In this document: positions 2,705 through 38,960 of the stretch, in pieces
How positions within the stretch are numbered: position 1 is the first letter of the stretch
Layout of the letters: each line of letters begins with the position of its first letter
Source: Asterionella formosa
Taxonomy: Eukaryota
Direction of reading: 5' to 3'
DNA: 38,960 nt
NCBI GenBank assembly: GCA_002256025.1
Contig: NKIB01015001.1
Location: 1-38,960 of the forward strand
Made by a program: the position numbers and the translations under genes
Notes under the pieces: generated by a model
Told to the model about the DNA's origin: nothing
What the model saw: the letters and a program-made list of their open reading frames with translations, nothing else
Database searches by the model: none

Positions 2705-2740
2705 CTTGAGTACCCTTTCAAACCTATCCGCTTTAAAGCG

Positions 2741-3128
2741 TGTTGAAATGGTCCGTACTCCTTCCCGCGGGCTGGGTGTCTCTTCACATAGACTCTTACG
2801 TGATCGTAGTACTAACTAGTACCACTTACTTTCTCTCTTGTCTCTGCTTCTAGCCTTCCTGCTAGATAGACTAATTGACCTTGCTGTCAATTAACACACT
2901 GTTTCCTCGGTTGATAATTATAAGCTAAACTAAATGTTTCCTTTCCATGCATCTTTGCTTCCTGCAAAGTCGTTCTAAGACTCTCTTCGAGTTTCCACTT
3001 AACATTTCCATAGAAATCTTCAATCTTTGATCTCGTTAGACAGCTGATTGACGTGGCAATGCAATATTCGACTCATTCGATTACAATCGAGTCGACAATC
3101 CTTGTGACTCGGGCTAATATTCTTGACA
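2741..3128 (-). repeat. 5' LTR of the copia element (about 388 bp)
   Basis: Begins TGTTGAAAT at 2741 and ends TCTTGACA at 3128 (TG...CA). The first 127 bp match 38834-38960 with 5 substitutions. The right boundary is inferred from the CA terminus and the abrupt switch to a GGTACC array. Confidence 0.85.
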
Positions 3129-3240
3129 CCGGTACCCTGGTACCTGGTACCACATCAGTATCGGTATCGACCTTTGCCACTCGTCTTCGTGCGTAAGAAC
3201 CAGGCAGGTACTTGTATTGTAGTACCGGTGAAGGTTTACT
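3129..3240. repeat. TACCWGG/GGTACC palindromic motif cluster flanking LTR
   Basis: CCGGTACCCTGGTACCTGGTACC directly after the LTR; further GGTAC/GTACCGGT copies follow. Confidence 0.8.
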
Positions 3241-4756
3241 GGAGAGCTACGGTCGGGGTCAGATGCGCGCACAGAGCGACCAGACAAGAATATCTCTCTC
3301 GGTCTGCCAAAAAATGAGTGAATGTACATGTTCATACAGGTAGGTGTATGTATGATTTAAATTTACTCGAATACACATACCTGTATACTTTGTACGTAAA
3401 ATTTATGTAGCGTAGTCCCTGCCTACATTCTTCCTGAAAACAAACTTATGACAAACAGTATGTATGTATACTGGTTCTATTGGCCTGGTGGGTAATAATG
3501 ATTCCTGTTTGGTTTTACCATGCATTTTGCAAATTTTTTCCATTGCCCATTGTTGTTGTGTCATGGCTGGTTCCCATATTACCCCGAATGTATTCTCCTT
3601 CTTGCTGTTATCGCCATCATTGTATTTTCATCCTGCAGTAGAAATAACGTGCATATAAAGTAAAACACTAATCAAATCTAAGGTAATAGAGGAGTATATG
3701 CTACCTACAATATACGAAGTACAGGAACAACTTTGAAGATTATCTGGTAATTTACCATGGGTTCTATGAACATGCCTATGGAAGAGCCGCATTGCTTACA
3801 CGCTTAAGTGTGCTATACCAATTTGTGGAATCAGTATCACCCGATGTGAGAAGAGAAATGGATTGTCCATTAGAGATCATTTCAATTTCTTTCAGTATAA
3901 TTTTATAATTTCAGGTTATGCTTTATATTCATTCATTTTTATCTAGTATTGCCATTGAGGATACCGATACTGTTTAGGCGTTTTCTGGTTAACATGTTAA
4001 ATTAGCCTAATTTCCCTCTGCTAAGAGGACTAAAATTATTTTACATATCCATTGATGAAGATACATATGAAAACAAATAAATGGGTACCAGAATATTTCA
4101 TTATGATCATATGTGTATGAAACATACCAATACCTGGCAGGCACTCAAATGCGACTCCTCCAGTAGTTTTAATTCGACATTGAGAAATTCCTCACGGTTT
4201 CACGCTGGCCCATTCCAGAAATCTCCATGTTTACAGCCCATGCATTTCATACTCTGAATGTACAGAAGTGCAAACAGCTGTGGTAAACATGCATCATATG
4301 AACATACCGTGAACTTCGGTTTTTTTACTTTTTTTACAAGGCCAAATAAACGAGTTGGCCCATTAAAATCCATTGTTTTCAGCATAGTTACAAAACCGAA
4401 GTTCTTTTCTGCCGTTTCTTGCCAGATCCTATACCGGTATCCTGACGATCTATCGCGTTCACCAATACCCCTACTTTGATCTATGACTGTATTTAAGTAT
4501 GTACATGGAAAGGGTGTGTATTGGTGAAAGCTCCGTTTAGCGATATACGTTTATATTTTACCCTAACGATGTCTTTGTTTGATTACTCTGACTCAATATT
4601 ATTTTTTTAACCCTACCTCGAGCTAGGGGTTCAAGTGTGTAATATATGTAAAATGCAAAATATTTTATAAGAAGCAAAAGTTGCCTCCCATCATAAATAT
4701 TATAGTAGGCGCTCCAATATAATTACCCATTCAACAACCAGTCAAAGTGCAGCAGC

Positions 4757-5998
4757 ATGTTAGAAGAAACTAAAAGATTCGAGCTATCAGAAGAAGAGTT
4801 TCAACGAACACTTCAAGACGGCGACGCCGACGCCGAAACTCGCATTCCAATCATCAATCGCCTTGCCGAGGGCAAGAAAACGCCAACATGTGTCATTGTG
4901 GTGGGCATGGCTGGATCAGGCAAGGTTCGTCGTGCATCTGTGTGCAGTATTGATGCCGTCATGTCTGAAGACAGAGTAACACTCAATTATCGTGTTTTCG
5001 TCCAGACAACGTTACTGGCCCAACTCCAGCGGTCACTGGATGCGCCGGTATCAACGGATTTGGAGGCAACTTCATCAGCCGAGAGCGGAGAAGAAAAGAC
5101 GCTTAAGGTCGGATATTGTCTCAATTTGGATCCAGCGACTCTACTAGTTCCTTTCGGAGCTTCAATTGATATTCGTGATACGATTGATTACAAGGTACCG
5201 GTAGTTGCAAACTTCATGTTGATGTTGAGATTGTTTACCGGATACGACCATGCAACAGAATTCAATCTCTCACCTTAACCTTCATTGCATCATTCACAGC
5301 AAGTTATGATTCAGCACAAGCTAGGACCGAACGGAGCCATTATGACATGCCTCAATCTGTTTGCCACAAAATTCGATCAAGTCATGACCATCCTTGAAAA
5401 GCGCTCTGACGATTTGGACTACATCCTTGTGGATACTCCTGGCCAAATTGAAGCCTTCACCTGGTCCGCTAGTGGAACCATCATGGGAGAGGCACTCGCA
5501 TCTGCCTTCCCTACGGTCCTGGCGTTTGTTGTGGATTGTGTCCGATGTGCGTCGTCTCCCAATACCTTCATGAGCAATATGCTCTATGCTTGCTCCATGA
5601 TGTACCGAACAAGATTGCCTCTGGTGGTTGTCTTCAACAAGATTGATGTTGTTCCGCATGAATTTCTGTTGGAATGGATGAAAGATTATGACGTTTTTCA
5701 AGAAGCATTGGACGAGATGCTCGATGAATCGCAGGGATTCTATGGATCTCTTACAAGATCTCTCTCGTTGGTTTTAGATGAATTTTATCGGCAGTTGCAT
5801 TCCTGTGGGGTTTCGGCGGCGACAGGAGATGGAATGGCAGATTTTTGGAGGACAGTAGACATGGCAGCCAAAGATTTTGAAACAGACTATTTGGACGATT
5901 TAAAGAATCGTGTCGACGAACAGAATGCTAAGAAAAAAGCCATGGCGAAGGACAGTCTACGGCGATTGCAAAAGGATCTCTCTCAGGAGGAAAACTAA
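4757..5998 (+). CDS. GPN1: GPN-loop GTPase 1 (XAB1/Npa3); exons 4757-4924, 5006-5194, 5300-5998
   Basis: Walker A GMAGSGK|TT split by GT-AG intron 4925-5005; NLDPA; IDIRDTIDYK|QVM split by intron 5195-5299; LGPNGAIMTCLNLFATKF (GPN loop); DTPGQIEAFTWSASG; FMSNMLYACS; NKID. Confidence 0.95.
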
Positions 5999-8109
5999 TT
6001 CAAGGTGATTTAGCTAATTGGCGTTTGCTCGCTACTAAACTATCTCTTCAGAAACTGAATTGTAATATACTGAAGATTAGAAATTAGATCGTTTGTGGGG
6101 AATGCGAACTGTGTACGCTTTGCCAAATACAATTAACGCCAGTTTCACCTAAACAAACTGCATATTGACACTCAGTATATTGACAAACAGTACACAACTT
6201 AATACAACATTTATGAATAGTCAGAGCTGCATTCCTGTGACTCATCAAATCGTATACTTAGTATATATGTGATTTTTCAAAATTGCAACATTGAACTTCC
6301 TTTTCATAATACTAAGCCCCCAGCAGTCTGTAGCGCTTAGTTCTCAAGGGAATCAAAAGGAACATCCCTTGCCAGAGCTCACATTAATGCAAAGATAAGG
6401 ATATGACCATCACATGACTCTTGTCATTTATTGTTAGTTTTCAGCTTGCTTTGCTGGAATTATTCCTGCAGGTGCAATTGATAAGAGAAAACTACGTTGA
6501 GTCTTGAATTTGGGTTCCAAATGAAATTTGGAGGTTCTGTTCTTGTCCTCTTCTTTGAAACGTCATTGCACGCCAACTTTATTCTTCATCTTCTTAGCTT
6601 TCCTCAGCAAAATATCCAACCCTTCATTATTGATACAACTTCAGAGAGTATTGACCTTGCCAAGGATGAGAATTTGTTTTAGGTGATTTAATATATACTA
6701 CCATTGGTGCACTCTGATACTCAAATGCATTGGACCATGCTTCCTTTTGAGCTTCAACTTGAGTTATTCAAAACTTGTGTTGATCCATTTACACATTGTT
6801 GTAGGAAAAATAAGAATTTCATTGTCATGGATTCAACAACCAAAAAAGGTCTTACCAAATACTCCACTGTTCCATCAGTTGTCTGGCGCTTGGGTTAACA
6901 AGGACCAGTACTCATGGTTCCTATATGATTCTTCAAATTGTTTTCAGATCAAGTTGCGACTCTTTGAGTGTTTCGTTGAGCTCTCAAGCTGGATGATTGT
7001 AAAAGTGCTTCATAAAAATGATGATATCATTGTAAGACTACCAACAGGAGCAAAAACCACTTAACTTTCAACCATGACTAATCAGAAATAGCCTCTAGTA
7101 AAGAATTGTTTAGGAGCAATATGGATAGTAGTATGAAACTGACACACTATTTTTCCATGTATAAAGGCGAGTTTACGAAAGACAAATACAGTACTACTGC
7201 CGCTGATCACAGAATTTAGTGTTATGCAAACTAGTACAGGGATCATCTTTGGGTCCTGATAGTTAATAATTCCTAAAAACGACCAATCCACCTTGACGAA
7301 AGTTGCTATCCAAGCGGCCAGCCAAGCAAAGAAGAACGAACAAATCATTCATATGGGACAGAACCACAAGATATTAAAGAAATCCGATAGAAAGCAACAA
7401 GAGAATGCAGAAAGGCAGGATGAGTTGGAAAAGCATACAAAGATTAATACAGGAGCAGTGAAAAGTGGCAATTGCATGGATGTCGATTTGGTTTTTGATG
7501 CAAACAACACAATTGATAAATTCATGGTGATGGTATCAACACAATACAAGCAGGAGTTGAACCATGCAAAGAAAACAACAGCATGAGAAGATAAGAAGGA
7601 GAAGTTTAACCCCTTTGTCATGACAGTGAGAACAATTACAGTGCAAGAAGAAGAATACAAGAATGGCGATGTGCTAAACATTGACAAGACAGAAGAAGCA
7701 TATAAATAATTAAAGAAGTCACTGATGAAGAAATTGTGCCAGAGCTGGAAGTGCTGCTCAAAGCAATAATTTCATGATGACGAAAACAAAGATGAAAAAC
7801 AATGAGTTGGAAGCCCTGGAATCACCAATTGTTATGGGTACTTCAAATAGAGTGAGCAGAAGTGGTGCCAAAATGGAATCTTTAACCCAATCCACACTCA
7901 CCCTCCAATTCTGCAGCTGACATGATGAGAAGTGAAGTCATAGACAACTGAACCAAGAACAAAGCTACCACAGTTTTTTAACTACATCAAGCACATGAGG
8001 AAGTGAATACCACCCAAGCCTTTCCACCGACCCACCTTATATGGGCCAAGGAGCGCAAAGACGGGAACTCTAGAAATAGAAGAGTAATCTGCGCTATAAA
8101 AAAATAATT

Positions 8110-8880
8110 ATGATTTGAAACTGACCCTGCAACAAGCTGGGAATACAATGTCATAGCACATCAATTTCTACAATGGGTCGACTAATGAAGCAACACTATG
8201 CGCGTTCCAGCGCCCAAAGTCACAACTACAGTTGTAAGGATGATAATGTAATGGTAAGTAAGTACATGAACACCAACAGAGCTGGACAGGAAGCAATACA
8301 TGCCTCATAGCAGTCTAGTACTCTTCTAGTTAGCAAATGAGAGTCCTAAAGCACTTGATATAAGTGAATCTAAATTTATGTGACATCCTTGTTAATTTTT
8401 CTCTTGATGGAAAAATCTATTGCTTATAATTTCATGCACCTGCTGGTGTTCTCCATGACCCAACAATGGGCACTCTGTCATCTAGCTAAATATGATCAAA
8501 TTTAGACTGTTTATGGCAAAACAGGTAAGAAAGTTGTTTCAGACTCTGCAATTGCATCAAAGAAATCTCATGCAATGCTGCCTGAAATCTCATGGAACAA
8601 AAATTGTCATGAATGGAAGTCGTCCTCATCTAAGATTTGGCATTGCCTGCCTGTCAAGCCACTTTAGTCATTCAGCTGTCTGAATAGGAAATCTGGTTTC
8701 TTCCGGGTTCATTTCCCAAGATGACCACAGCATTAATTTCATTAGGAAGTGAAAGGTGAAAGGAAATTAGTCCTCCAAATGATTGTATTACTATACAATT
8801 TTCGTGCCAGGAAAGGTGGTCAGAATGAAATTGCGTCTGTGTACATGCCCTATTTGCACTGGAATGCTAAGAATAGGTAT
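8110..8880 (+). pseudogene. decayed PIF/Harbinger (DDE_Tnp_4-like) transposase
   Basis: Successive remnants across frames and stops: DLKLTLQQAG..FYNG, FSLDGKI...APAGVLHD, VVSDSA, QLSE*...GSFPKM, GERKLVLQMIVLLYNFRARKGGQNEIASVYMP. Motif order matches this family as I recall it. Confidence 0.7.
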
Positions 8881-9159
8881 GCTTACGTCATTGAATGCAA
8901 TTTAATGATTTTTCTAAGGTTATTCGTCATCAACTATTTACTATTTGGGGTTACGGTTAATTGATGTACTGTGCCAACACAAGGATGCCCAGGGCAGTCG
9001 TTTCTGGAATTTGTATTCCAGCCAGAACGCATACCTGTAGATCACATGATATGTCATCGAGTTCTTGATCATGATACAAAATGCCTTACAGGTGGTGAAT
9101 TATAAAAATCCAGAGAAACCGACTGTTGCTTGAGGGCCTGACCACCAAACTAACCAACA

Positions 9160-9777
9160 ATGAGAGAAATACAGGCGTTTATTGATCCGTGTTTCAAACT
9201 TAGAGGAAAGAGAAAACGATGTGAACGCAGTTTCACATTTACAACAGCGTTGAACTCAGCTTTTGACACTCCATTTTCAACTTATCAGCTGACTCTTCCA
9301 ATGTTGCAACCATCATCAATAGTGCTATTGAATGCACTGGATCCTGATGATGTTCTCAGCAAAGAAGATATTATAATTGGCACTGTACTTGGGTTTGCGC
9401 TCGCCTTTCTTTGGTCGTTTATCCAACGAAGGCAGTCCGACACTAACATAGTTTTATGGCGACAGGATTCAGACGAGGAAACGGACAGGTCGACACCATC
9501 CAAGTCAACAACAACGTTTGATGCTGACGATTGGAGAGAAATAAGTCGCGAAGAAAACTACGTATTTTTCAATACGAAAGTACGAAAGCAAATTGCAGGA
9601 CAAGACAAACCGAAATCGTTGAAACACGGGCAGAAGTGGGTTCTTGTGGCTTTAATGGCGCTCTTTGTTCCTATCTTTTCCTTCGAGATCTTTCTGGCAC
9701 TGAGTAGAGGATTATTGTGTGATGATTTACTTTCAGATTGGGACATGGCCCAGGTACTCTGTGCTCCTCACAGATAA
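9160..9777 (+). CDS. hypothetical membrane protein with two hydrophobic segments (true start may be ATG 9301)
   Basis: 205-aa ORF with segments IIIGTVLGFALAFLWSFI and WVLVALMALFVPIFSFEIFLAL and a C-terminal LC..LCAPH; composition looks coding from 9301. Confidence 0.7.
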   Translation: MREIQAFIDPCFKLRGKRKRCERSFTFTTALNSAFDTPFSTYQLTLPMLQPSSIVLLNALDPDDVLSKEDIIIGTVLGFALAFLWSFIQRRQSDTNIVLWRQDSDEETDRSTPSKSTTTFDADDWREISREENYVFFNTKVRKQIAGQDKPKSLKHGQKWVLVALMALFVPIFSFEIFLALSRGLLCDDLLSDWDMAQVLCAPHR

Positions 9778-9879
9778 CATAAAATTCGCGAAGTAGTATG
9801 AGCGGACAGGTAAAATCTAACATTTTTCGCAAGATCGCACAGTACTTGGTACATTCTTCAGATGCCATGTACTGTATTA

Positions 9880-11283
9880 TTAATTCATATGTAATTGCGA
9901 ATCTCGTTTGGGAGAGTCTTTTTGGACCTTAGTAACAATCTTGATAGGACGGACTTTCGTTTCTCCGAGACGCTTTAAAAGCACTTTACCAAGAAGCTCG
10001 GCTGGAGTGCCAAAACCGTCATCACTGATTCCAGGTAAATTCGATCGGTCCCACACCAAAGCCAGTGCAGCCTCGGACACAACTTGGGCAGTAACAAGAT
10101 TCCCAGGGTCTCCTTGGAAACCCATATAGCATGTACCTCTATCGACACGGCCATCTGCTGTTGGAGCAGCCGCTTTGGTAGTTACTTCCGCATACACCTC
10201 GGTATAACACGCCTTGTTAAAGGCATCTGGTGCACCACTTCCAGGCGGAAAGAACCGGTCTGCGATCTTCTTTCCAAACACGGGGAAACCCAAAATGCAC
10301 CCAACAGCAACGAGTACAAACAAGTATATGGCCGCAGGAATGACTGAGAAAATCCCAAGCATACGGGTAAGCTTGAAGCCTAAAGGATATAATCGCTCCC
10401 TATAGGTGAATTCTTTTCCATAACCGAGTGCCACAGCGCTAGCAAGCACGACCTTGGCATTCACAACTGCCATGAAAAAAGGGGCACTCACACCGTAGCC
10501 TGTGTTACTTTCAAGTGCAGGCAGCTGATTCGCCCACTCAGCCGCTGCCATGTTGGCCTTCAAAACTTCAAAATCTGGATTGAAACGGACCTTCTTTGGG
10601 TCAGCCAAAAGCAATGGGTCGTCCATAAAATAAGGCACCTTGCGCAATCCTCCTGTTTTTGACAAGATCATTCCCCAAAAATCAAATGGCATCGCAAGTG
10701 CACTTTGAACAGTTCCTCCATTCACGGCTCCCTTTCCCGCATGCCAAGTTGTTCCCTCCTCAATCACTACATCAGACCCACGGATATCACGCAGAGCGTC
10801 GACAGCTGCAAAGATGGAAAGGTCACTCGGAATCGAATCGAATCCACAGAGAGAAATAATACGAGAACCAGAACTTTTGGAGAGATCTCCAAACTGAAGA
10901 CGCATCTTCGCCACCCAAAAGGTTTCTCCCGTAATATCTACGTAGTCTGCTCCAGTCTGAGCACATGCCGCCACAACGTTAGTTGCGTAATGCTGGAACG
11001 GACCAGCACAGCAAATTACGACTCTGGAGCGTTCCGCCATCTTCGTGAGTCCAGGGGCATCACATGAATCGGCAGTGAAAATGTCGACACTGCTCTGTTG
11101 TTGATCCAACGAATCTTTACGAGCTTCCAACGTTGATTTGTTCCGTCCTGCCAATGTGAGCTTAATGGGCTTCGATTCAGCTACAGCAACAGCGAGGAGA
11201 TATTGGCAAATGTATTTACCAACGTATCCAGTGGCGCCATAGACTGTAATGTCTGTTTCAATTTTGCCAATGTCACGAGGCAT
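9880..11283 (-). CDS. saccharopine dehydrogenase-like oxidoreductase (SCCPDH / trans-acting enoyl reductase family)
   Basis: Rossmann motif VYGATGYVG, LAGRN, CAGPF, DYVDITGE, CGFDSIPSD, GDPG, GFGTPA. The ORF is open to 11400 but the likely start is ATG 11283. Confidence 0.9.
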   Translation of the reverse strand: MPRDIGKIETDITVYGATGYVGKYICQYLLAVAVAESKPIKLTLAGRNKSTLEARKDSLDQQQSSVDIFTADSCDAPGLTKMAERSRVVICCAGPFQHYATNVVAACAQTGADYVDITGETFWVAKMRLQFGDLSKSSGSRIISLCGFDSIPSDLSIFAAVDALRDIRGSDVVIEEGTTWHAGKGAVNGGTVQSALAMPFDFWGMILSKTGGLRKVPYFMDDPLLLADPKKVRFNPDFEVLKANMAAAEWANQLPALESNTGYGVSAPFFMAVVNAKVVLASAVALGYGKEFTYRERLYPLGFKLTRMLGIFSVIPAAIYLFVLVAVGCILGFPVFGKKIADRFFPPGSGAPDAFNKACYTEVYAEVTTKAAAPTADGRVDRGTCYMGFQGDPGNLVTAQVVSEAALALVWDRSNLPGISDDGFGTPAELLGKVLLKRLGETKVRPIKIVTKVQKDSPKRDSQLHMN

Positions 11284-12689
11284 GTTGCTAATATTCTTGA
11301 TGGAAAATATATTAGAAGTGAATGAAGCAGGTGCGGCAACGACTGCAGCGTGGGCTACCGGTAGATGGGAATGGTTAGAGCAGCAATTACCGGCAGTCAT
11401 TCGTGTTACCAGTACCAGCAGGTGGTTAGTGTTTTCGGAGTCGATTCGTTTTCATTTTTTCATGTACAAGCAATAAACACATCAGCAGGCTATTAAAAAG
11501 TTGCCTCCACGGTTCCCGCCAAACAGGAATGTATGTACCGAGCGCAAATGTCAGCCTTGCCGCCGCCGACGGCTGTTACGTCATTTCAGCTGATTTTTTT
11601 AATTCAGGTGAAATGATGTGAGCACTCAAAATCTGGTGAGTAATTTTGTTCTTTAAAATAAATTAGCTGTAAGTAAATTTATTTCTGATGCAGGCCTCAT
11701 GATTCCTCCTATCTAATTTTTGGGTAATTTTTATTTCACCCAAAACCTCTTCTCTATCAAAACTTAGATTTATTTAGATAGCAGCAGGACGATCCTGTCA
11801 AATGCTTACCTGTAGCCACGTGTACCTACCTACTTGCATTCAATTCTGAATCAACAATGTGGTTGGGCCAAAAATGATGTTTCTGCAGCATATGAAACCG
11901 GTTTTGGAATTGATTTTGATCCCATTATGCCAGACAAGGCCACCAGAGACAGCATCCGCAGATGCACAACTATCCAAGAGCGCATGGATGTGGCAGCTAG
12001 CAGTAGATTCCGTGCTGTTGTGGAATCCATGCATGACTTGACCCTTAATTCCCCCCAGTGACACCAATGACTCTGTCTCCATGGAGTTGACATTGCCACA
12101 GGTTGGCAATGTCTGTGACAGCACTTTCAGTGGCTGTGACATTTCACAACGTTTTGCTGAAATTTTGGAAGGACCTGATGTTAGAAACAGTGTTCAAGCT
12201 CAATCAACAAATGATTATGAGGAAACCAGTGGCTATGATATCAGCAGCAGCAATGATGAAAAACCTGAGAGAAAAGAGCAGTCTTTCCACGTCTACTGCC
12301 ACAGTAAAGATGAAAATCTGCATCACAACGAAAATCTGGGTAATCACTTGTTTCAACAGCTAGTACAGCTAGATTGTGGCACAGACAACTTGCTGTCGTC
12401 TTCTTCCACAGGCAACTCAGTCAAAGGCATAGACAACATGCTGCAATCTTCTGCCAGTTGCAACACAGAAGAAAAGTAGCCAGATGGTGATTGTATAAGT
12501 TATGAAATCATTGCAGTTCCTCCACAAACAAGAGAAAGGAAAATGACAAAAAGAAGAAGAAATGCCTTATCAGTTCAAGAAGCATTGGAATTAGGTGAAG
12601 GGTCAATTCATATTTGGGGAGGACAACACTTCAAAAGGTTATATCCCACACTCAATTTCATTTCATGTTGCTTTTCAGGATACCATTTA

Positions 12690-14014: not shown

Positions 14015-14033
14015 GTGCTTTGGTTCTATCATG

Positions 14034-14600: not shown

Positions 14601-14739
14601 TGAACGGAATTTCGCTTTCCAATGCTACAAGACATGCCGGATTTTCTGTAGATTCCTACATAGCCGTATAGTGGCAAACTAGACCAGTATGTTGGCAAAA
14701 TTTTGGAACAGTATGGTATTTGGAATATAGAGTGACAGT

Positions 14740-15455: not shown

Positions 15456-15762
15456 CTGACAAGAATAAATAATACAAGTTACGCTAAGCATTATGCAATG
15501 CGAATTGCCCTGCTGCTGTGCGGCTCAAGAACTTTTTTGCTCTCGAAAGTTTGTTGCCATGATCTGAAAGAAAAGAGCAATATTGCTAAATATAGTGAAA
15601 GGAAAAAAACAATTGTATAAGTAGTAATTGTATCACACGCTGATGTCATAACTTAAATTTAACAAACATACTAGCCACACATATAAACTTCGACACACTG
15701 AAAGCTAAAAATACTTGTGTTAACAACGGTCAATCGACAAAAAGCACCTCCAACGACAATCC

Positions 15763-28090: not shown

Positions 28091-28615
28091 CAGCCGCCAT
28101 TCCATCTCCATAAACCTCTCCTACTGTGGTTGTTGTTGCTGCACCTCCTCTTGTTGCAACTCTTTCTCCTTCTATGACTGCTAGTAGCTGCTGCCAATCC
28201 ACCATTCCGTGAGATGAAGTTTGAGACTTGTAAGTAATTGGATGCAAATTTTGTGATTTATGTAATGCATCAGAAGAATTCTACAACAATGATGCTGCTC
28301 TGCTGCAAAAGTGTAAAATATAAAGTGATAAGAAAGAAATTTGTAGCATAAATGGAGTAAAATAGACACGGTTTGGGGGAAAATTATATTTGTATACAGA
28401 TAGAAAAATATGCACTGTAAGTCACTGCTATGCAGAAAATCTCTATGGCTTGATACACTGAATCAAAACTGATTCCTTAATAGCATAGCAGAGAGCATCG
28501 TCTAACATACACTATTCACTTGCATCAATTTTTTATTGATAGTATAACATTTATATTTTTAGTCAGAAGATAGAGGAAAATAACGGTGGCTTACATTTTT
28601 TAATCGGTTCTTCTG

Positions 28616-29410
28616 CTGGTTGAAAATAATTGCGGCGATTGCTAAAATTTCTCCAGGGCAATTTGGATTCCTACGATTTTCTCCGGTTCAATAGCCCTAA
28701 TATACGAAATTACATAAGCTACAGATCTATGTATGATATATATTTAGTAAATTTAAAACTGAAAACTGTGTACCAAATTTTTTTGGGCTTCTCCGATTTT
28801 CACTTATGGCTTTCTCAAGCAGAAGAATGCACCAGATGCATGAGGACACATTTTTCTTCGAACCATCTAGTATTCTCAACATACTTATGATGTATGATAT
28901 AACAGTAGAAAAACGGCAACTTGCGTTTAAGTATGGAATGCGCAACCCCAAAAGTTTCAATGGTGGGAAGGAAGAAAACAACGATATGCTTGTTTTGAGG
29001 AAATCACCATTAAATATCCGGGGATATGGTCCATGTAAGTGCAACAATCATAGAAAGTATACAAAACAACAGTTACTCTATTCATGTTATAATTATGATA
29101 GAGGCTTGTTGTATTTTGTTTCCCACAAATATTTGAGTGGCCGGCCAATATAAAATGGTATTTGGCAATATGCACATTTATGTAATTAATATATGTATGT
29201 TAAATTGGTTTCAAATAATTTATGTAGATGCTATTAGTTTAATTACAGAAACAGAGGGTATGTTCATGTCTATGTAACTAATAATGAAAGCATTTTTTGA
29301 GTAACCCAATCCTCATGTAGAAAGATGATATGTTAGCTATGTAATCCTTCATATGCAAACAGTGAAGACACTAGTGGTGCTGGCGATTTGACACAATTAT
29401 TTTCAACCAG
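28616..29410. mobile_element. MITE-like non-autonomous element with 17-bp perfect terminal inverted repeats
   Basis: CTGGTTGAAAATAATTG (28616-28632) and its exact reverse complement CAATTATTTTCAACCAG (29394-29410) enclose an AT-rich non-coding interior; no clear TSD. Confidence 0.6.
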
Positions 29411-29415
29411 AGGGA

Positions 29416-29490
29416 GTACCCTGGTACCAGCAGGACCAGGTACAGTACCGGTACTTTTATTGCAGTGCCTGTTAGCTGGTACATGGTACT
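29416..29490. repeat. TACCWGG motif cluster
   Basis: GTACCCTGGTACCAGCAGGACCAGGTACAGTACCGGTAC directly after the MITE end. Confidence 0.75.
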
Positions 29491-30025
29491 CCTACTTGTC
29501 ATTTTATTTGTGCAAGGAGAAGAAGCATTGACTCTGTTGACTCATCATCCAAACAAGCACCAGCATCATCATACTGGTTTTTTTAATACTTTCCTGGACT
29601 CATGTTGAAACTGCGTCCCGAAGCCTTCTGTTGTTTTCTTCTATCCTGTAAGGATATGTCAGGGACCACATGGGCTGTAGATATTAACAATGATGTGGCT
29701 GAGATTGATTGTAATCATTCCTAAAAGATTGAAAAGAATTTATTGGTTTTACTTGTGGTGGCGCAGATTGTTTTCGAATTCTGATCTTGATACCGGTATT
29801 CTTTTTGATTCATTTGATTCAATGTGTATATACTTATGTAATTTCATACCGGGATGTTTCCTAAATTAATTTCTCCAATGACAATCATTATGGCTCTTTT
29901 GTTTATAAATATACCAGCCCAGCATGATCCAATGAATGCAGATCATTGAAACGTAGAGTTCAAAAAGTAATTCGGAGGCTCCTTCCTTTCACTAATTGTC
30001 CAAAATCAAAATAACTACCGGTATA

Positions 30026-31861
30026 ATGCTTAGACGAACGCGCACATTCAGCACTCCCGCTATAAAACAATTTAGTCATCAGTTGCCCTCCCTTTTCAGA
30101 AGAACAGGATTCATTGCTTCCACGGGTCTCGGGCTGTGGTTGGCCCATCGCGAGGCCGTCAGATCACATCCAGAGTTTAAGGGAACCGGGGAAACAATCA
30201 TTCGAGCATTGAGATTAGTTGGATCTGTCGCTTTGATTCTGGTAGATTATGAGTATGCCAAGTTTGAAAACAAATTTAGGCCGATACGTGAACCCGAATC
30301 AATGCAACAGTATTGGGACCTCGAGCGAGAGAAGAGAATAAAAGGCTTGGAAGAAGCACAAGTAGCATATACATCGCCTAAGGATAAGATCTTATTGAGT
30401 TCTGGCAAGACGAAAGAGGAAATCATTCTTGAGCAACGAAATGCGGTCTACACCGCTGCCGAACAATTAGCCGAGGCTGAGGACATGATTTCCGAGATCG
30501 GAGATCCGAAGGGTCTGATTCACAAGAAGGCTGCCACCCGATTGCTAAAACTTTGTCAAAAGAATGGAGGTTCATACATCAAGGTTGGACAGCATTTGGC
30601 TAATCTTGATTATCTTATTCCTAATGAGTATATTGTGGTCCTCTCGACACTCTTTGATGCGTCGCCAAAATCAAGCTACGAAGACGTATGCGCGGTAATA
30701 CAGGAAGATCTGGGAATGCATCCCGATGAGCTCTTCGATTCATTTGAGAAGGAGCCGATTGCCTCGGCATCGCTGGCTCAAGTTCATGTTGCGTATGAAA
30801 AAGAATCAGGTAGAAAGCTTGCAATAAAGGTGCAACATCGTGGTTTGCGAGAGACTTCCAAGGGAGATATACTGGCATTGGTAGCCACAGTAGACATGGT
30901 TGGCCTGATGTTTAAAGATTTCAAGTTCGGTTGGATTGTAGAAGAAATCGCACCTCAGCTTCCAAAGGAACTTGACTTTTGCAACGAAGGCAAAAATGCC
31001 GAACGAGCGTCGGTGGACATGACAAAAAATGGCATGGCGTGCATTATCCCGAAAATCCGATGGAATCATACAAGTGAGCGTGTGTTGACAATGGAGTTTG
31101 AAGAAGGCTTTAAAGCAACAGACTTGGAATCAATTGAAAAAGCAGGCCTAAAGAAGTCAGATGTTTCTAAATTGATCTCGTCTGTGTTCAACTCGCAAGC
31201 TTTTTTGTCATCCTTTGTGCACTGTGACCCACATCCCGCCAATGTTTTGATCCGAGCCAATAAAAATGGCAAACCTGAAATGGTTTTGGTCGATCATGGT
31301 CTGTACAAACAAATAGATGACGAATTTCGGATACGTTATGCCAATCTTTGGAAATCTCTTATGCTGGCAGATCTCAGGGGCATTGAAGAATCTTGCAAGG
31401 CTCTAGGCGTGGATGAGACGTACACGCTACTGGCTGCGATTTTGACTTCAAGGCCCTACGACGAAATTATGGAACGCAGCAAGACAGGATCATTGTATGG
31501 GAAGGTCAATACTGAAAGTAAGATGGATCGAGCCATAATTCAAGGTTACGCTCAACAGTTTCTGAGTGATATTATTGAGATTCTTGGCACCCTACCACGG
31601 CAAATGCTCTTGTTACTAAAGATGAATGATTGTTTACGTCACATTGACTACACACTTGGTTCCCCGACTAACACATTGGTGGTGGCTGGGAAATACGCCT
31701 CGATGGCAGTACTGCAGGATCAAATGCTTAATAATCCAACCGTAAAAGGTCGATTTCTTGCTATTTTGGACTTCATGCAAGTTATTTTACGTGTTCAGAT
31801 TCATAATTGGGGTGTGTGGTGGATTGAAAGGAGAAAGACAATGCCTGCAATAGCCTACTAA
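30026..31861 (+). CDS. ADCK1: ABC1/UbiB/AarF atypical kinase, ADCK1-like
   Basis: NGGSYIKVGQH, PIASASLAQVH, LAIKVQH, ELDF..EG, LTMEF, FVHCDPHPANV, LVDHGLY; Arg-rich acid-free N-terminus compatible with mitochondrial targeting; first ATG at 30026. Confidence 0.9.
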   Translation: MLRRTRTFSTPAIKQFSHQLPSLFRRTGFIASTGLGLWLAHREAVRSHPEFKGTGETIIRALRLVGSVALILVDYEYAKFENKFRPIREPESMQQYWDLEREKRIKGLEEAQVAYTSPKDKILLSSGKTKEEIILEQRNAVYTAAEQLAEAEDMISEIGDPKGLIHKKAATRLLKLCQKNGGSYIKVGQHLANLDYLIPNEYIVVLSTLFDASPKSSYEDVCAVIQEDLGMHPDELFDSFEKEPIASASLAQVHVAYEKESGRKLAIKVQHRGLRETSKGDILALVATVDMVGLMFKDFKFGWIVEEIAPQLPKELDFCNEGKNAERASVDMTKNGMACIIPKIRWNHTSERVLTMEFEEGFKATDLESIEKAGLKKSDVSKLISSVFNSQAFLSSFVHCDPHPANVLIRANKNGKPEMVLVDHGLYKQIDDEFRIRYANLWKSLMLADLRGIEESCKALGVDETYTLLAAILTSRPYDEIMERSKTGSLYGKVNTESKMDRAIIQGYAQQFLSDIIEILGTLPRQMLLLLKMNDCLRHIDYTLGSPTNTLVVAGKYASMAVLQDQMLNNPTVKGRFLAILDFMQVILRVQIHNWGVWWIERRKTMPAIAY

Positions 31862-31917
31862 AAAGGATAGTGAAAGCTATGTCTACATGTTGATTGGTGA
31901 AATCGTGAGCTTGGATG

Positions 31918-32823
31918 TTACAAGTGAAAGTCCCCCTCCTGCTTCCTCTTCGACTTGATGAGGGCATACTGTGCCTGAACCTTTCGTCTCATTTCCTCCA
32001 TAGCCTTGTGCTCTAGTAGAACTTGGAAGTTCTTGCTCGACTTGTTGTTTTGCGCCATTGTGGCCTTTTTGTGTACAGCACCCCGTGGTAATTGCTGAAA
32101 GGACGGAGGTCGTTCGACTTGGTCGTGTATAGTCGACATTCGAGCCGCTTGTTCACCGGTAATAAAGGTGTCATGCTCTTCATCGTCAGCCCCCGCCCTG
32201 GAATCCAAGTCACTGTCTTCAGTCTGTTTCGAACCCTTACCCTTCTTAGCCTTCTTCTTGGCATTCATAAATTCTTTCTTTCTTTGTCTTTTTTCTGGAT
32301 TTTGCGTTTGCAATTTGTCCTGACGAATTAGCTGACGCGTCTCCTGCTTGACGCGCTTGTAGAAGGCCTTTTTCGATTCCCCTTCTATACGCTTCATCGT
32401 TTCTTCTTTCGGTTTTGCCTCCACTGCGATCTTCAGAACTCTTGCTGTCCGCTGCTCGTCCTCCAAAGAATTAATCATAAATTGATTCGATACTGGAACT
32501 TCCAGCTTCGTCATTGTCCTTGGGGCCGCTGCTTTGGCATCGTCCGCAATCGGCGGCGCCACGAATTTTTCTTTCTTCAACGAATTGACCATGTCTTTAA
32601 TATCAAAGTCATCCCTTTCCGGTGCTAAATCGAAGAGACCTCTGTCGGAAGCATCTTCCTTCTTTCGCTTCCTTCTCAGCTCCGTTGCCGTATATGATCG
32701 CTTCTTTTTCTTCCGTCCATCGTCGCCAAGCCCCCAGGTAACTTCGCTGATGCTTCTGCCGCCGTTTTTCTTCGAAAATGGATCTATCGCCTTGATCTTC
32801 TTGTAGCGTGCAACTCGACCCAT
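31918..32823 (-). CDS. basic coiled-coil protein, CCDC137-like (probably nucleolar)
   Basis: KKIKAIDPF N-terminal motif, R.EGESKKAFYKRV, DQVERPP, EEMRRKVQAQY..K: motif order as I recall for CCDC137-like proteins. Confidence 0.7.
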   Translation of the reverse strand: MGRVARYKKIKAIDPFSKKNGGRSISEVTWGLGDDGRKKKKRSYTATELRRKRKKEDASDRGLFDLAPERDDFDIKDMVNSLKKEKFVAPPIADDAKAAAPRTMTKLEVPVSNQFMINSLEDEQRTARVLKIAVEAKPKEETMKRIEGESKKAFYKRVKQETRQLIRQDKLQTQNPEKRQRKKEFMNAKKKAKKGKGSKQTEDSDLDSRAGADDEEHDTFITGEQAARMSTIHDQVERPPSFQQLPRGAVHKKATMAQNNKSSKNFQVLLEHKAMEEMRRKVQAQYALIKSKRKQEGDFHL

Positions 32824-33075
32824 GGTGAAGATTTATCTTCTTGTGTTTGTTTGTGGATGAGAGACTTAGTGTGGTTTCCTTTTGAAAGCAGTTTGCTATA
32901 CATAAGCAAATAGGATGCACTTCTTGTGTTCTCCTTTTATTTTATGATTTAAAAAAATATTAAATATATAAAATTTAACATTTCCACTTCAAGCAAATGT
33001 CGAATATTTTTTACGTGGCTGTATTTTATCGGTTTCTTTGTTTCGTTCGATCCTTCGACAAACTGCGGCTATTAG

Positions 33076-33270
33076 TATACCGGTAGGCATTATACGGCTT
33101 GTCAACTCGATGTACCGCTGGTATAGTACCAGTACCCTGGTACCTGGTACCGGTAATTTAGCTAGTCATAGAATGCATGGCTATTATTGGTGAACAGTGT
33201 GGGCCTCGCTCCGAAAATTCGCGTACAAGTATGTATATACAGTGCCTGGTACCAGCACCGGGTACTCCCT
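33076..33270. repeat. TACCWGG motif cluster in divergent intergenic region
   Basis: TACCGGTA 33078; GTACCAGTACCCTGGTACCTGGTACCGGTA 33126-33155; CCTGGTACCAG 33245. Confidence 0.8.
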
Positions 33271-33952
33271 TTTGCTTCTCGAATGAGCGATGATACTCGG
33301 ACTATGCAGACGTAACTACGGTGTTTATTATGGCTACTGGTTATCATCGATTCCGCCTGCCCATCACTCGGAAATGTGGATGATGACCGTTGAGCAGCAA
33401 AAGCTACCCATCATCACGCGTAATGCCTAGCGGCTATTGAAGAAATTAAATGTCAAGAGGGTGAAGATGAGCGAGGATGGCATCAATAGTAATTATAGCA
33501 TTGTTTTATACCGGCATGTATATGGTTAGATGCATGATATTGACTACGGCCATCAAAGATGTAGAAATTAGCGCATACGTATGTAGGGAAAAGGTATATG
33601 TTTATATTATACTGCCTGCGAGTGCGTATACCACATGGAGGGGATAACGAAAGCCACGGGACACAATCTTTTTCACAATTGAACAGATCATTCACGTCAT
33701 CGGCGAGGGCCAAAGCAGCCAAGCGAAGGAAAAGTCAAACAATTCATAGAAGACGCAGCTGGTGCATTCATCATATTCGATAATTCCGCCGCTGTTTACA
33801 TTGTCCACCATAAAAAACCGTTGAGTGTAGCGGTGACTGTAATTGCTTAGATCGCAGCACCCCCAAAAGTATAACAAGGTGGTTGAACGATTTTATTCGC
33901 CGTTCCAAAAACATCACGTTTACGTTCCCGATCGATTGAGTACACTGACGCC

Positions 33953-36070
33953 ATGGCTAAGAAGAGGAAGAACACCAAGAAAAAGTCCTCCAACGGAACA
34001 GCAACCGGAGATAACGACGCGGAAACCACTCTAGAAGAAAACATGGAAATGGAAAAGGACGAACATGTAGAGGTGGATTGCATGGACCCCACAGCAAGCG
34101 ATACCGGCAATCTTGAAATTGTTGCTGCGGAGGACTCTGCAGCCGACGATCCACCCCCTGATTCTTTTCCAGACGACGAATCACAAGATGATAAACCATC
34201 TGAGGCCATTCCTGATGTTGGTGGATTTACTTCAGATGAAAAGGACCTTGAGGAGTCGGTTGTGTGCAACGAACCAGCAACAAAGGTGGACGACAACACA
34301 GACGTCACTGGTCAACCTGACAACGATGCAGCAACCGCTGCAAAATTCGCAGAGGAAGAAGGAACTTGCACTGAAACGTTCAAAGAAGTGATGGAAACAG
34401 CTACCTTACTTTCTGAAGATGGACTTATTGCGTCAGTCGTCGTGCTGGAGGAAAAGGACTCCCTTGTGGTACCCAACGAAGCCGAAGCCTTTGAAGGAGA
34501 AGTGGAGGGCACTCCTACGGCATCCAATGACGCAGAGGGAGAAGTTGTATCTTTTAAAGGAGAAGTTGACGACTCTGCTGTGGCACTCCATGAAGTACAC
34601 GAAGAAGCAGCAGCTTCTAGGGGAGAAGAGGAGGACTCTGCTCTTGCACACCATGAAGCAGAGAGAGAAGTTGCTTCTTTGAAAGGAGAAGGAGAAGACT
34701 CTGCTGTGGCACTCAATGAAATAAACGAAGAAGCAGCAGATTCTAAGGCAGAAGAGGAGGACTCGGCTGTGACACCCAATGAAGCAGACGATCAAGCAGC
34801 AACTGTAAAGGGAGAAGAGGAGGACTCTGCTGTGGCACCCAATGAAGCAGAAGAAGAATCACCAACTGTAAAAGGAGAAGAGGAGGTCTCTGCGGTGATA
34901 CCCAATGAAGCAGACGAGGAAGCAGCAGCTGAAAAAGGAGGAGAGGCAGACTCTGCTGCTGTCCCCAATGAAGCAGACGACGGAGCAGCAGCTTCCACTG
35001 AAGAAGAGGTAGACTCTGCTGCTGTACCCATTGAAGCATACGAAGTAGCAGCAGCTTCCACTGGAGAAGAGGTAGACTCTGCTGCTGTCCCCAAGGAAGC
35101 AGACGAAGGAGCAGCAACTTCCACTGGAGAAGAGGAGGACTATGTTATGGCACCCAATGAAGCATACGAAGAAGCATCAGCTATAAAGGAAGACGTGGAC
35201 TCTGTTGTGGCACTCAATGAAGCTGACGACGAAGCAGCAGCTGTAAATGGAGAAGAGGAGGACTCTGATGCGACACCCAATGAAGCAAACAAAGAAGCAG
35301 CAGCTGTAAAGGGAGAAGAGATAGACTCTGCTTCTACGACCAATGAAGCAGACGAAGGGGCAGCAACTTCCACTGGAGGAGAGGAGGATTCTATTGTGGC
35401 ACCCAATGCAGCAGACGAAGAAGCAGCAGCTGTAAAGGGAGACGAAGACTCTGCTCTGGCACCCAATGAAACAGATGAAGAATCAGTATCTGTAAAGGGA
35501 GAAGGGGGAGACTCTGCTGCTGTCCCCAATGAAGCAGACATAGAATCATCAACTGGAAAGGGAGAAGAGGTAGACTCTGCTGCTGCCCCCAATGAAGTAG
35601 ACGAAGGAGCAGCAACTTCCACGGGAGAAGAAGAAGACCCTGCTGTGGCACTCAATGAAACGCAAGAAGGAGCAGCAGATTCTAAAGGAGAGGTGGAGGG
35701 CTCTGCTGCTTTCCTCAATGAAGCAGACGAAGGAGCAGCAGCTGTAAAGGGAGACGAGGACTCTGCTGTGGCACCCAATGAAGCAGAAGAGGAATCTGTT
35801 GTGTCGTTTGCCGAGGTAACTGCTGTGGAGGCAGTACCTGCAGACTCTGCTGTTGAGACCCCTGTTGTGCCGGCTACTGCATCAGAAAAGGTTATTTTTT
35901 ACACGTTGGAAGAACTGAAGGCAGGTGTTGCTGGAGTCGACTATGCAAAGCGTGAACAATACCTCCCGGAGAATGTGTTTCAAGACTTGTTTGGTATGAA
36001 TAATGATCAATTCAAGAAGCTGCCATCATGGAAGCGCATTGCTGCCAAAAAGAAGGTAGGATTGTTTTGA
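33953..36070 (+). CDS. acidic tandem-repeat protein with C-terminal villin headpiece domain
   Basis: 705-aa ORF; C-terminus VDYAKREQYLPENVFQDLFGMNNDQFKKLPSWKRIAAKKKVGLF is a villin headpiece (F..F..F, LP.WK, KK.GLF); basic N-terminus MAKKRKNTKKK. Confidence 0.9.
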   Translation: MAKKRKNTKKKSSNGTATGDNDAETTLEENMEMEKDEHVEVDCMDPTASDTGNLEIVAAEDSAADDPPPDSFPDDESQDDKPSEAIPDVGGFTSDEKDLEESVVCNEPATKVDDNTDVTGQPDNDAATAAKFAEEEGTCTETFKEVMETATLLSEDGLIASVVVLEEKDSLVVPNEAEAFEGEVEGTPTASNDAEGEVVSFKGEVDDSAVALHEVHEEAAASRGEEEDSALAHHEAEREVASLKGEGEDSAVALNEINEEAADSKAEEEDSAVTPNEADDQAATVKGEEEDSAVAPNEAEEESPTVKGEEEVSAVIPNEADEEAAAEKGGEADSAAVPNEADDGAAASTEEEVDSAAVPIEAYEVAAASTGEEVDSAAVPKEADEGAATSTGEEEDYVMAPNEAYEEASAIKEDVDSVVALNEADDEAAAVNGEEEDSDATPNEANKEAAAVKGEEIDSASTTNEADEGAATSTGGEEDSIVAPNAADEEAAAVKGDEDSALAPNETDEESVSVKGEGGDSAAVPNEADIESSTGKGEEVDSAAAPNEVDEGAATSTGEEEDPAVALNETQEGAADSKGEVEGSAAFLNEADEGAAAVKGDEDSAVAPNEAEEESVVSFAEVTAVEAVPADSAVETPVVPATASEKVIFYTLEELKAGVAGVDYAKREQYLPENVFQDLFGMNNDQFKKLPSWKRIAAKKKVGLF
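34523..35796 (+). repeat. coding minisatellite, about 20 copies of a 63-bp (21-aa) unit, three of them 60 bp
   Basis: Consensus near PNEADEEAAAVKGEEEDSAVA; AATGAAGCA at 34778 and 34841 (63 bp apart). Confidence 0.95.
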
Positions 36071-36613
36071 TTTCTAGCATCAAAAACCTTGATCTCGAAA
36101 CACAAAAGAAGTTCACTACGCTCGAGTTAATCTGAGAGTATAGGTAGCAATAACTTTGTTGCGACAAGGGACAACTTTCCTTTTCAACCGGTGTTTTAAG
36201 AATTACAGCCAATTAGAACTATGTTGTTGCAAACAAGCTTCTCAGAGGTTGTTCCAACATAGGTGGTACTGACTGACAATTGGTATCAGCAATGACATTC
36301 GTTTATCTACAGGTAGTGACAAATGGAGTGCTGTAGGAGGCTATGTACAGCTACAGTACCGAGGCACATCTCCATTCCGCGACTTGGTACCCTCACGTTT
36401 TTTCTCCGCCTAGGTATGAAAAACTATTGGTAAAATATTCGAAAGTATCAAGATGTTTTACAAAGTAGAAACAACGACCAGAAAACTTTGAATCGATAAA
36501 CGTTTAAGTCTACCGCTCCTTCTTGCAAGGTCTCGCCTTCCAATTCCAGTTCTACATAGACAGTTACAGCAAACAATTGAAATCTCCTTTCTATCTAAAA
36601 TAAAAAGTTCGTT

Positions 36614-37228
36614 TCAAAGGATCACACAACAAGCAGCTTCTCCTCCACTTCTTTTGAACGACCGCTTGTATCCTTCCAAATAGGTCAACTGTTTTTCATT
36701 GATAGCGCCTTGTCGGTATTTTCGAATGAGCGTAACAGCTTCCACAGGGTCCATATTAGAGAATTCAATCAGGGCTAGTGCCACCATGGCTGGCGCTCGG
36801 CCCAAGCCAGCCACGCAGTGGATCGCAATACACTTCTTCTGAGTGGGAGCTTCGTCCATCTTGAAGAACGACTTTTCCACCAATTTGAGCCATTGATCAA
36901 TGATTTGTTGTGGAGGAGCATGGCCATCTTCATAGGGCATTTCATGCAAATATATTCCAGCATTGACCAATTCGCCGGAAGTATAGGTCGTGGGTTCACA
37001 AACCCGGACCATGTCAGTTACTCCGTGTTTCTTCATTTCCTTGATGTATAAGCCAAGGTTTTGCTGTCGTGGAGCGTCCATGATGAGAAACTTCATAGGT
37101 TCCACGTTGATGACTGTTGGTCGAGGTCCAATCATGATGCTGCTAGTAGGCTGGCTGTTGCTGGACCCTTGTCGAGCAATAGCAGTGGAAGCGGTGCTCG
37201 CGATGGCGGGAGTCATTGATGTTTTCAT
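36614..37228 (-). CDS. PTP4A: prenylated protein tyrosine phosphatase PRL / PTP4A
   Basis: FLIMDAP, VRVCEPTTY, DGHAPP, P-loop HCVAGLGRAP (Ala after Arg, PRL-specific), R..RQGAINEKQL, C-terminal CaaX CCVIL. Confidence 0.93.
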   Translation of the reverse strand: MKTSMTPAIASTASTAIARQGSSNSQPTSSIMIGPRPTVINVEPMKFLIMDAPRQQNLGLYIKEMKKHGVTDMVRVCEPTTYTSGELVNAGIYLHEMPYEDGHAPPQQIIDQWLKLVEKSFFKMDEAPTQKKCIAIHCVAGLGRAPAMVALALIEFSNMDPVEAVTLIRKYRQGAINEKQLTYLEGYKRSFKRSGGEAACCVIL

Positions 37229-37609
37229 TTTCAAATAAGAATGTTGGCTTGGAAGAACAAGTTCAAGGTCTCATAAGTTAGATGGCTACGTTATACGTAT
37301 ATGCACGAATGAAGTCCTAATGCGATGAATCACGTCAGCGCTAATCAAATCAGCCAGGAGTATCAGAACTGGCAGCAACGCTTGTAGTTAGCAGTAGCAA
37401 AAGCCAGTGAGATGCTCCACGTTGATGAGGAGTATGAAAGGGCTGAAGGCAAGAGGGATTCATTAAACAACCTGCTGTCGATTGGTGCCAGCAGGTAGTG
37501 CTTCAAGGGAAAGTTGAATGCGGAGCAAAGAACGATTGCAATACTCCAGTTTCAATGGAAGAGATTCGTGTCGAACCGTAACTGACTGTGCTGTCCACTG
37601 TGCTGGGTT

Positions 37610-38833
37610 CTACCAGGTACCTGGTACGGTACCAGGTACCCTAGTACTACAGTAACAGTGGTAGATTATTCCTGTGGTACAATATGCTATCATGTACACC
37701 GGTATACAAATCGTATTTCGCCATGAACGAACGAAAAAACTACCGTTACCTGGTACTACATATATATGCATGTAGGCTGCTGTCCAGAATTATGACTGCG
37801 ATTAATGGTACAACTACCTACGTTGGAAAGCTGTTACTTGCTTATTCTTGACGTTTCTAGTATATACTGTATAGTAAAGTTACAGTTCATATACTTACCG
37901 GTTATATACCGGGACATCCTCTACCGGTACGTGGTACCGTAGGCTCCCACAAACGAGCAAGCAAACAACCACGAGTAACGGTACCGGTAAGTAGTTTTGT
38001 ATTATATTATTTTTTAGCAGAATTTGACATACCCTGGTCCCACTACTAGGTACCAGGTACTGGTACCAGTACCAGGTACCAGGTTACCGGTGGCTGGGAT
38101 TAATAACGTAGCTAAAATTGTACTCTTGATGTGTACTGGTACCTGGTACCAGGTGCCGCTCTGATCAATACCTGATACCGTTGGGGCAAGAAGACCGGAA
38201 GGATCACTGGTACCTGGTACCAGGGTGGTACAGACACTACCCGGTACCTGGCACCTGTACCTACCAGGGAACCAGGTACGAGAACGAAGTCTTCATATTC
38301 ACAGTACCACCCTGGTACCGAGGTACTGTTACCAGCGTACCAGTAGCAGCACACCGCCGAAAACACAACTGCAACTCAGAGTACAAACCAGTATTAATTA
38401 TTTTTACAAGTAGACTACCTCCATGTACTAGTACGGTAGACATTTACCGGTATGTAGGCCATACATAGAACTTCTGTACATACGCACGAAGATGTACCGG
38501 TATAAGCACTCCAAGTAGCTATCTTATTTACATGATACTAGGTACATATTATAGGAGATCTTGGAATACAGCTGTTTCAATGCACATACCGGTACCAGGT
38601 ACCTGCATTTGCTCAACCGCGGTATCCTCTAAAGAATGGAACCGTGTCAACTTTGCATATTTTATCATGGATCATGATATTTGTGTAATTTTCTAGACCA
38701 GCTTTATTTACATACCGGTACCTGGTACCTGGTAGTAGGAGTGGAGAATACCAGTAGAGATCATCCATTAACAACACCAATATACATTACCTGGCACCTG
38801 GTACCGGTACCTGGTACATGGTACCAGGTACCC
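37610..38833. repeat. largest TACCWGG/TACCGG/GGTACC palindromic array region
   Basis: Dozens of GGTAC/GTACC units; 16-bp perfect palindrome 37611-37626; 32-bp palindrome with one mismatched pair 38049-38080; 12-bp-arm hairpin 38806-38832. Confidence 0.9.
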
Positions 38834-38960
38834 TGTTGAAATGGTCCGTACTCCTTCCCGCGGGTTGGGTCTCTCTTCACGTAGACTCTTACGTGATCGT
38901 AGTACTACCTAGTACCACTCACTTTCTCTCTTGTCTCTGCTTCTAGCCTTCCTGCTAGAT
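38834..38960 (-). mobile_element. second LTR of the same copia family (3' LTR of another copy or solo LTR), truncated by window end
   Basis: 122/127 identity to 2741-2867 in the same orientation; its left flank is genomic GGTACC array rather than the gag leader. Confidence 0.92.

Follow-up and report, generated by a model that had tools for sequence, protein, structure and literature searches.

Insertion bias of Ty1/copia elements toward GGTAC promoter arrays in the genome of the diatom Asterionella formosa

Described systems and the two LTRs of the window

The mechanism of targeted integration of long terminal repeat (LTR) retrotransposons has been worked out in a small number of yeasts, in an amoeba, and in plants. 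Here we analyze it in a diatom, starting from one whole contig (NKIB01015001.1, or C15001; 38,960 nucleotides, hereafter the window) of the Asterionella formosa assembly GCA_002256025.1 (68.4 Mb, 15,436 contigs), a genome whose DNA occurs in sequencing runs that are mostly freshwater. The window carries pieces of two LTRs of one Ty1/copia family, family A, that abut arrays of GGTACC/TACCWGG motifs. In a sample of copies from this genome, the bias of these elements toward such arrays is real, reproducible, and partial, and the arrays are not an obligate target. A measurable bias toward the dominant promoter word of the genome means that fresh insertions favor regulatory sequence; it also gives a handle on array function and names a candidate integrase motif. 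If only accessibility and ordinary integrase preference are involved, this is a neat but expected instance.

Ty1 (AC40/RNA polymerase III [Pol III]) and Ty5 (Sir4) are reportedly steered by a short integrase C-terminal motif, and their targeting, with known partners, is said to be far tighter than that found here; a candidate motif lies in the same integrase region of the diatom families. The behavior of the diatom copia elements appears most like that of Tf1 with Sap1 in Schizosaccharomyces pombe (PMC5371812). Tf1 likewise is an LTR element in a gene-dense genome, with gene-upstream, nucleosome-depleted sites predicted by a sequence-specific feature. However, Tf1 is a Ty3/gypsy element for which Sap1 binding, integrase contact, and fork-barrier activity have been demonstrated, whereas the diatom family is copia, its bias is partial, and its insertions do not mostly fall at the feature at a fixed offset.

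Plant elements also show a weak palindromic consensus around the target duplication, attributed to integrase symmetry (PMC6911290), but the preference there is local, whereas here a 6-bp rule holds in two families and an effect reaching to about 100 bp is tied to one word family. Pairing of a copia element with host repeats has a precedent, since Tal1 (Ty1/copia) associates with centromeric repeats through their CENH3 chromatin (PMC11735389); those are centromeric tandem repeats, in contrast to the dispersed 15-50-bp promoter arrays considered here. Among diatoms, the CoDi elements of Phaeodactylum and Thalassiosira (PMC2806351) are Ty1/copia with TG/CA LTRs of similar length that lie between genes, sometimes close to them. 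They differ in the one 5-bp duplication given (ACAAG), in the heterogeneity of their duplications, and in that the accessible part of that report describes no motif bias, although the feature table in its Additional file 1 may list 6-bp duplications. A literature search, with most subscription papers and that feature table outside its coverage, found neither a motif-linked insertion bias nor copia duplications of 6 bp described for diatoms.

A first-pass annotation of the window had placed its two outer LTR junctions exactly inside GGTACC/TACCWGG arrays, the right one a base away from a hairpin with 12-bp arms. The sequences read as it gave them, with TTCTTGACA before and CCGGTACCCTGGTACCTGGTACC after the left junction at 3128/3129, and ...GGTACCAGGTACCC followed by TGTTGA at the right junction, 38833/38834. 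The hairpin is a perfect inverted repeat at 38806-38832 (12-bp arms, 3-nt loop, one base from the right LTR; DNA fold -13 kcal/mol, z -2.57). A host GGTACC/TACCWGG array adjoins the left LTR at 3129..3151, and a terminal array that contains the inverted repeat adjoins the right LTR at 38788..38833. The 50-bp flanks hold 6 (left) and 9 (right) GGTAC/GTACC words, counts reached by 0.54% and 0.05%, respectively, of 50-bp intervals of this contig; the sites are also extreme among copies, with at least 6 words in 50 bp at just 3/157 other junctions.

A 5' LTR on the left and an LTR 3' end on the right, both in minus-strand sense, represent two separate insertions. The annotation had argued the same from differing flanking 5-mers (CCGGT and TACCC); the two insertions stand, but the duplication is 6 bp, and the 6-mers, CCGGTA at 3129..3134 and GTACCC at 38828..38833, differ too. 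Both assignments apply a 6-bp rule derived from 24/34 same-locus pairs; the partner side of the left site is not assembled, and the right junction recurs on contig C8973. What these two sites show is that the LTRs abut arrays: each site is assembled on one side, and neither a partner junction nor an empty allele turned up. None of the junctions fetched was a partner of either site, and when the genome was searched with both host flanks, the right junction matched one duplicate besides the window and the left matched the window alone. Among listed contigs of four runs aligned over 36100-38960, none bridges 38833/38834; their loose ends there are mixtures of other arrays.

Array enrichment and local preference at copia junctions

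An exact LTR-end pattern had 155 genome matches, of which the 100 listed were fetched, and a DNA search with the 5' LTR gave 383 candidate matches, of which 40 were scored (81-100% identity) and fetched. From 243 LTR ends with flank, we dropped 71 that face the element interior, 12 that were duplicates, both window sites, and a single internal end of 12 nt that had been misclassified, retaining 92 left and 65 right host junctions (157, about 119 independent events); the left set alone represents one junction per insertion. The background consisted of 46 stretches of 10 kb (460 kb) from large contigs, 50% of which a codon-model mask calls coding; GGTAC words are sparser in coding (1.14 per kb) than in noncoding DNA (4.96 per kb).

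Motif-rich flanks, with at least two GGTAC/GTACC words within 50 bp, were found at 25/92 left and 23/65 right junctions, compared to 5.2% of intergenic positions (p 6e-12 and 8e-14), or 48/157 overall (30.6%). The background rate is 6.6% after repeat masking. With GC matching, 48 motif-rich flanks were observed and 15.2 expected; GC richness was thus rejected as the cause. With gene orientation and distance matched, 24 of 76 flanks were motif rich and 5.6 were expected. Word density falls from 33-43 per kb at 0-10 bp from the junction through 12-32 out to 75 bp to about 6-7 at 150-200 bp, over a background of about 5, and array words rank top of 512 five-letter words at 12-80 bp. Metagenome contigs from other samples supplied 7 host junctions that are all distinct from those of the genome, and 3 of the 7 are motif rich. 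For motif-free flanks, a general hairpin preference was also rejected, as inverted repeats occur in 19/57 motif-free flanks and in 30.5% of the background.

In this sample of copies, LTR flanks are 5-7x richer in clustered motifs than intergenic background, and about 3-4x richer after GC or gene-position matching, so the annotation's claim survives the comparison with intergenic sites that it had proposed. Insertions are enriched near the arrays even over matched controls, as they are for elements tethered by a host factor, but they do not mostly sit at the arrays with a reproducible offset: 48/157 flanks are rich, and the only offset peak is the local-site peak described below. The bias is partial, with about 70% of junctions lacking a motif cluster within 50 bp.

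The arrays consist of a single half-site, TACC/GGTA, in inverted pairs and at fixed spacings. Their words are the most enriched nonhomopolymer words in noncoding DNA, with about 1.5 clusters per kb, and TACCGGTA is 134-fold enriched there; the same sequence is an over-represented promoter motif in the oomycete Phytophthora (PMC3597505). At 100-800 bp from coding segments, array words reach 7-9 per kb on the 5' side versus 3-5 on the 3' side, and in convergent gaps they are fewer, not absent (2.96 vs 6.61 per kb). Insertion flanks likewise face gene 5' ends more often than 3' ends (56 vs 22, p 0.001), and none of the 157 begins in a predicted coding segment. No nucleosome-scale periodicity of array clusters was seen. 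Array length varies by 6-bp units between samples. In the window, an array-rich intergenic region (37611..38833, seven clusters of at least three words) lies upstream of a minus-strand dual-specificity phosphatase open reading frame (ORF) at 36614-37270, and contigs from two other runs (X2, X7) that span parts of it gain 6-bp units at 37697 and 38782. Like the copia target duplication, these extra motif units are 6 bp long.

Insertion into pre-existing arrays is favored over later growth or selective retention, because the youngest LTRs are the richest, arrays straddle intact target duplications, and LTR interiors gain few array words. Motif-rich flanks make up 25/61 (41%) of the youngest and 7/36 (19%) of the oldest age class (Fisher p 0.043), the motif lies on both sides in 8/38 paired events versus 3%, and LTR interiors gained 1 word in 20 kb when young and 3 in 8.6 kb when old. 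The right window LTR belongs to the youngest class, with zero divergence to its third-nearest copy (measured for its duplicate locus). The look for empty alleles that the annotation had suggested as a test of this order found none for the window sites.

The target duplication of family A is 6 bp: 34 same-locus pairs comprise 24 exact 6-mers, 3 with one mismatch, 7 with none, and 0 with 5 bp only, which rules out a 5-bp duplication. Plant duplications measure 5 bp in 87% of cases and 6 bp in 1.2% (PMC6911290). A strict target sequence was rejected as well, as the commonest 6-mers occur just 3 times each among 119 events; a near-invariant target or duplication, as in strictly sequence-specific LTR integration, was not found. 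Around the duplication lies a weak palindromic consensus, S-W-N-(6 bp)-N-W-S, with G/C three bases outside in 123/157 half-sites. This preference is independent of the arrays, since it holds in motif-free sites (80% of 88 half-sites vs 38%). GTAC satisfies half of the S-W-N site, and its starts peak at one offset (18 vs 0-7 elsewhere), which puts the duplication's outer edge between G and TAC.

Weighting the background by a matrix of the site predicts 8.6% motif-rich flanks (5.9% if built from motif-free sites), compared to the 30.6% observed. Where the first 15 bp are motif free, arrays lie at 15-80 bp in 20/94 sites versus 5.1%, and paired events of this kind have at least two words at 15-80 bp in 12/22 cases versus 8.8%. 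A joint logistic model needs both terms (motif term p 1e-7), the local matrix term being the larger: the likelihood ratio (LR) is 179 on dropping the matrix and 28 on dropping the motif. There are two layers, a palindromic local site preference and a separate attraction to arrays within about 100 bp.

The repeat-retrotransposon pair proposed in the annotation is not supported as a tight, family-specific one, as an ordinary preference of integrase for palindromic sites accounts for part of the signal and a divergent copia family, family E (reverse transcriptase [RT] 44% identical to that of family A), is biased too. Family E also makes 6-bp duplications (5/6 pairs). Its motif-rich flanks number 5/27 at 50 bp and 10/27 at 75 bp, a small sample from 20 of 159 listed or counted ends, with one internal row dropped (28 to 27); T-A-C stands just outside the duplication in 7/27 half-sites. 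The bias is thus probably common to divergent copia families and not family specific, although local preference may explain most of it in family E. For family B, the intended control, 146 LTR ends were listed, and one of the five host junctions obtained is motif rich. Family C gave a single exact match.

Readings of the bias

The association with arrays and how far it reaches, the cut of 6 bp, the consensus at the site, and the lean toward upstream DNA are observed; as the cause of the regional term, we infer accessible promoter chromatin. This reading, which we tentatively prefer and rate a little short of an even chance, has integration biased in two tiers into arrays already there. Regionally, promoter-side TACC/GGTA arrays, with which insertions are associated, probably mark nucleosome-poor or otherwise accessible DNA, and copia integration complexes would capture DNA within about 100 bp of them 3-6x more than other intergenic DNA. 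Locally, integrase would make a 6-bp staggered cut at the palindrome read from base frequencies, a pattern that established knowledge assigns to integrase. The cut would often fall within the word itself, at the G/TAC edge, because GTAC satisfies half of the site.

Several observations weigh against this reading. No motif lies within 100 bp in 70/156 flanks, the background is no random genome sample but comes from large contigs that bear LTRs, masked for coding sequence by a home-made model, and all insertion sites examined are old, selected insertions. Family E is marginal at the prespecified 50 bp (5/28 before the internal row was dropped, p 0.013), and where 18.5% were observed, a matrix trained on the 27 half-sites of this family predicts 14.6%, an overfitted estimate with an effective sample of 251. 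A family of miniature inverted-repeat transposable elements (MITEs) with TTAA duplications has 2/39 flanks with at least two words (13 duplicate ends dropped from 52), which equals the intergenic background and is about twice the TTAA-matched 2.6%; family A differs from it (48/157 vs 2/39, p 0.0008). Because a MITE might also use open DNA, this result fits plain accessibility less well than something specific to retrotransposons.

A host protein on the TACC/GGTA half-sites might contact integrase directly, as Sap1 does for Tf1. We consider this somewhat unlikely, although the arrays have a binding-site-like grammar (one half-site, inverted pairs, fixed spacings, the 134-fold enriched TACCGGTA), TACCGGTA is over-represented in oomycete promoters (PMC3597505), the reach of about 100 bp fits, and the MITE shows no clear bias. 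The contact might run through a KLxRE(M/L) island that stands 50-75 residues before the RT start in four families (A, B, D, and E), in an otherwise variable integrase linker; in the window, it lies at about residues 247-258 of the minus-strand ORF 2-997. From its sequence, the island is a candidate targeting motif, its role a guess, and the regular expression had no match in three upstream segments from a further family. Moreover, most copies are not near arrays, no candidate binding protein was identified, and there is no fixed offset from the motif beyond the local-site peak, and at that peak the cut falls within the very word on which a protein would sit. In a broader version, which we hold to be unlikely, a candidate host protein reading the promoter arrays would serve LTR lineages that are not related to one another as a common landing platform, used by divergent copia families through KLxRE(M/L). 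This would be Tf1/Sap1-like targeting arisen convergently in stramenopiles, and 6-bp staggered cuts may feed 6-bp units back into the arrays.

Integrase might instead read the DNA alone, preferring bendable, pyrimidine-purine-rich or hairpin-prone array DNA that an additive 18-bp matrix underestimates, with no chromatin or host factor. The strong palindromic preference, the larger matrix term (LR 179 vs 28), and T-A-C outside the family E duplication agree with this, as do the weak palindrome preference and the palindromic Tos17 consensus published for plants (PMC6911290). However, the excess at 15-80 bp from motif-free cut sites (20/94 vs 5.1%) and the lack of excess inverted repeats in motif-free flanks oppose it, and we regard this explanation as rather improbable. 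A distance of 15-80 bp is beyond the intasome footprint. That insertion is random in intergenic DNA, with selection sparing copies in or near redundant arrays, appears very unlikely. All sites examined are indeed survivors, 0/157 flanks begin in predicted coding sequence, and intergenic placement is reported for Phaeodactylum elements (PMC2806351), but enrichment declines from the youngest to the oldest LTRs, and MITEs in the same intergenic space show no clear bias. Growth of arrays after insertion, or an assembly artifact, is hardly credible: samples do differ in array length by 6-bp units, duplicating 6 bp on insertion can create a further motif copy, and both window sites lack an observed empty allele, yet zero-divergence LTRs have the richest flanks, arrays straddle intact duplications, LTR interiors gain few words, and independent assemblies repeat the pattern.

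Element structure and neighboring features

The left element of the window runs on the minus strand. Its 5' LTR (2741..3128, 388 bp, TG...CA ends) has boundaries consistent across copies and is followed directly by a perfect 12-bp palindrome at the primer-site position (2729..2740). The internal part (1..2740) is defective and ends at the contig edge before the RT. It comprises gag (ORF 1874-2815, ATG at 2704; Pfam PF14223, PF22936, and PF25597 for the internal part), protease (895-1917), a broken integrase core (about 900-1200), and the integrase SH3 domain with C-terminal linker (2-997); tblastn with the sister-family polyprotein returned it in three pieces and two frames. The second family A LTR, also on the minus strand, is the 127-bp 3' end of a 3' or solo LTR (38834..38960) that stops at the contig edge and is 96% identical over 127 bp to 2741-2867.

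Assignment to Ty1/copia follows from integrase preceding RT: gag, protease, and integrase SH3 stand in order in the window, sister family B has rve, SH3, and RVT_2 in one frame, and an RT-RNase H piece of family A, partial and missed by Pfam alone, is 73% identical to that of family B and closest to RVT_2 clusters. The TG...CA LTR ends, a purine tract before the 3' LTR, and a short target duplication, here 6 bp where 5 bp is typical, agree with this order. A two-LTR family A copy (G000:C12336:44279-48305; L011, L012) has a 6-bp duplication with one mismatch and, at 4 kb, falls short of full-length diatom elements, for which 5.2-8.1 kb is reported (PMC2806351). At the primer-site position, family E has a different perfect 12-bp palindrome (L251, L253, L259, L270), and both palindromes are unlike the usual tRNA site. 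No complement of at least 9 nt to the family A primer-site position was found in its LTR, and hence no sign of self-priming complementarity in this family.

Elements also meet one another. At L087 and L205, LTRs of family A either sit within family E LTRs or are separated from them by no more than about 70 bp, one family E LTR is inserted into family E RT sequence (L251), and no other elements abutting CCWGG were found in the fetched loci. The MITE family is a nonautonomous DNA element with terminal inverted repeats, TTAA duplications, and 534 genome ends (L032, L170, L010, L085); the first MITE end pattern tried matched only its source. At L085 and L269, families A and E are inserted at the equivalent position of two MITE copies, both with duplication CACCCC, a recurrent motif-free hotspot, and one MITE copy lies inside an LTR. 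In the window, a MITE remnant (4329-4619) lies between the left LTR and a GPN-loop GTPase gene whose Phaeodactylum homologue is 72% identical; the homologues of this GTPase mark the host as a pennate diatom. Farther along, 33887-36070 holds an ORF of 727 codons in which an acidic repeat of 63 bp (21 aa) recurs about 20 times ahead of a C-terminal villin headpiece domain.

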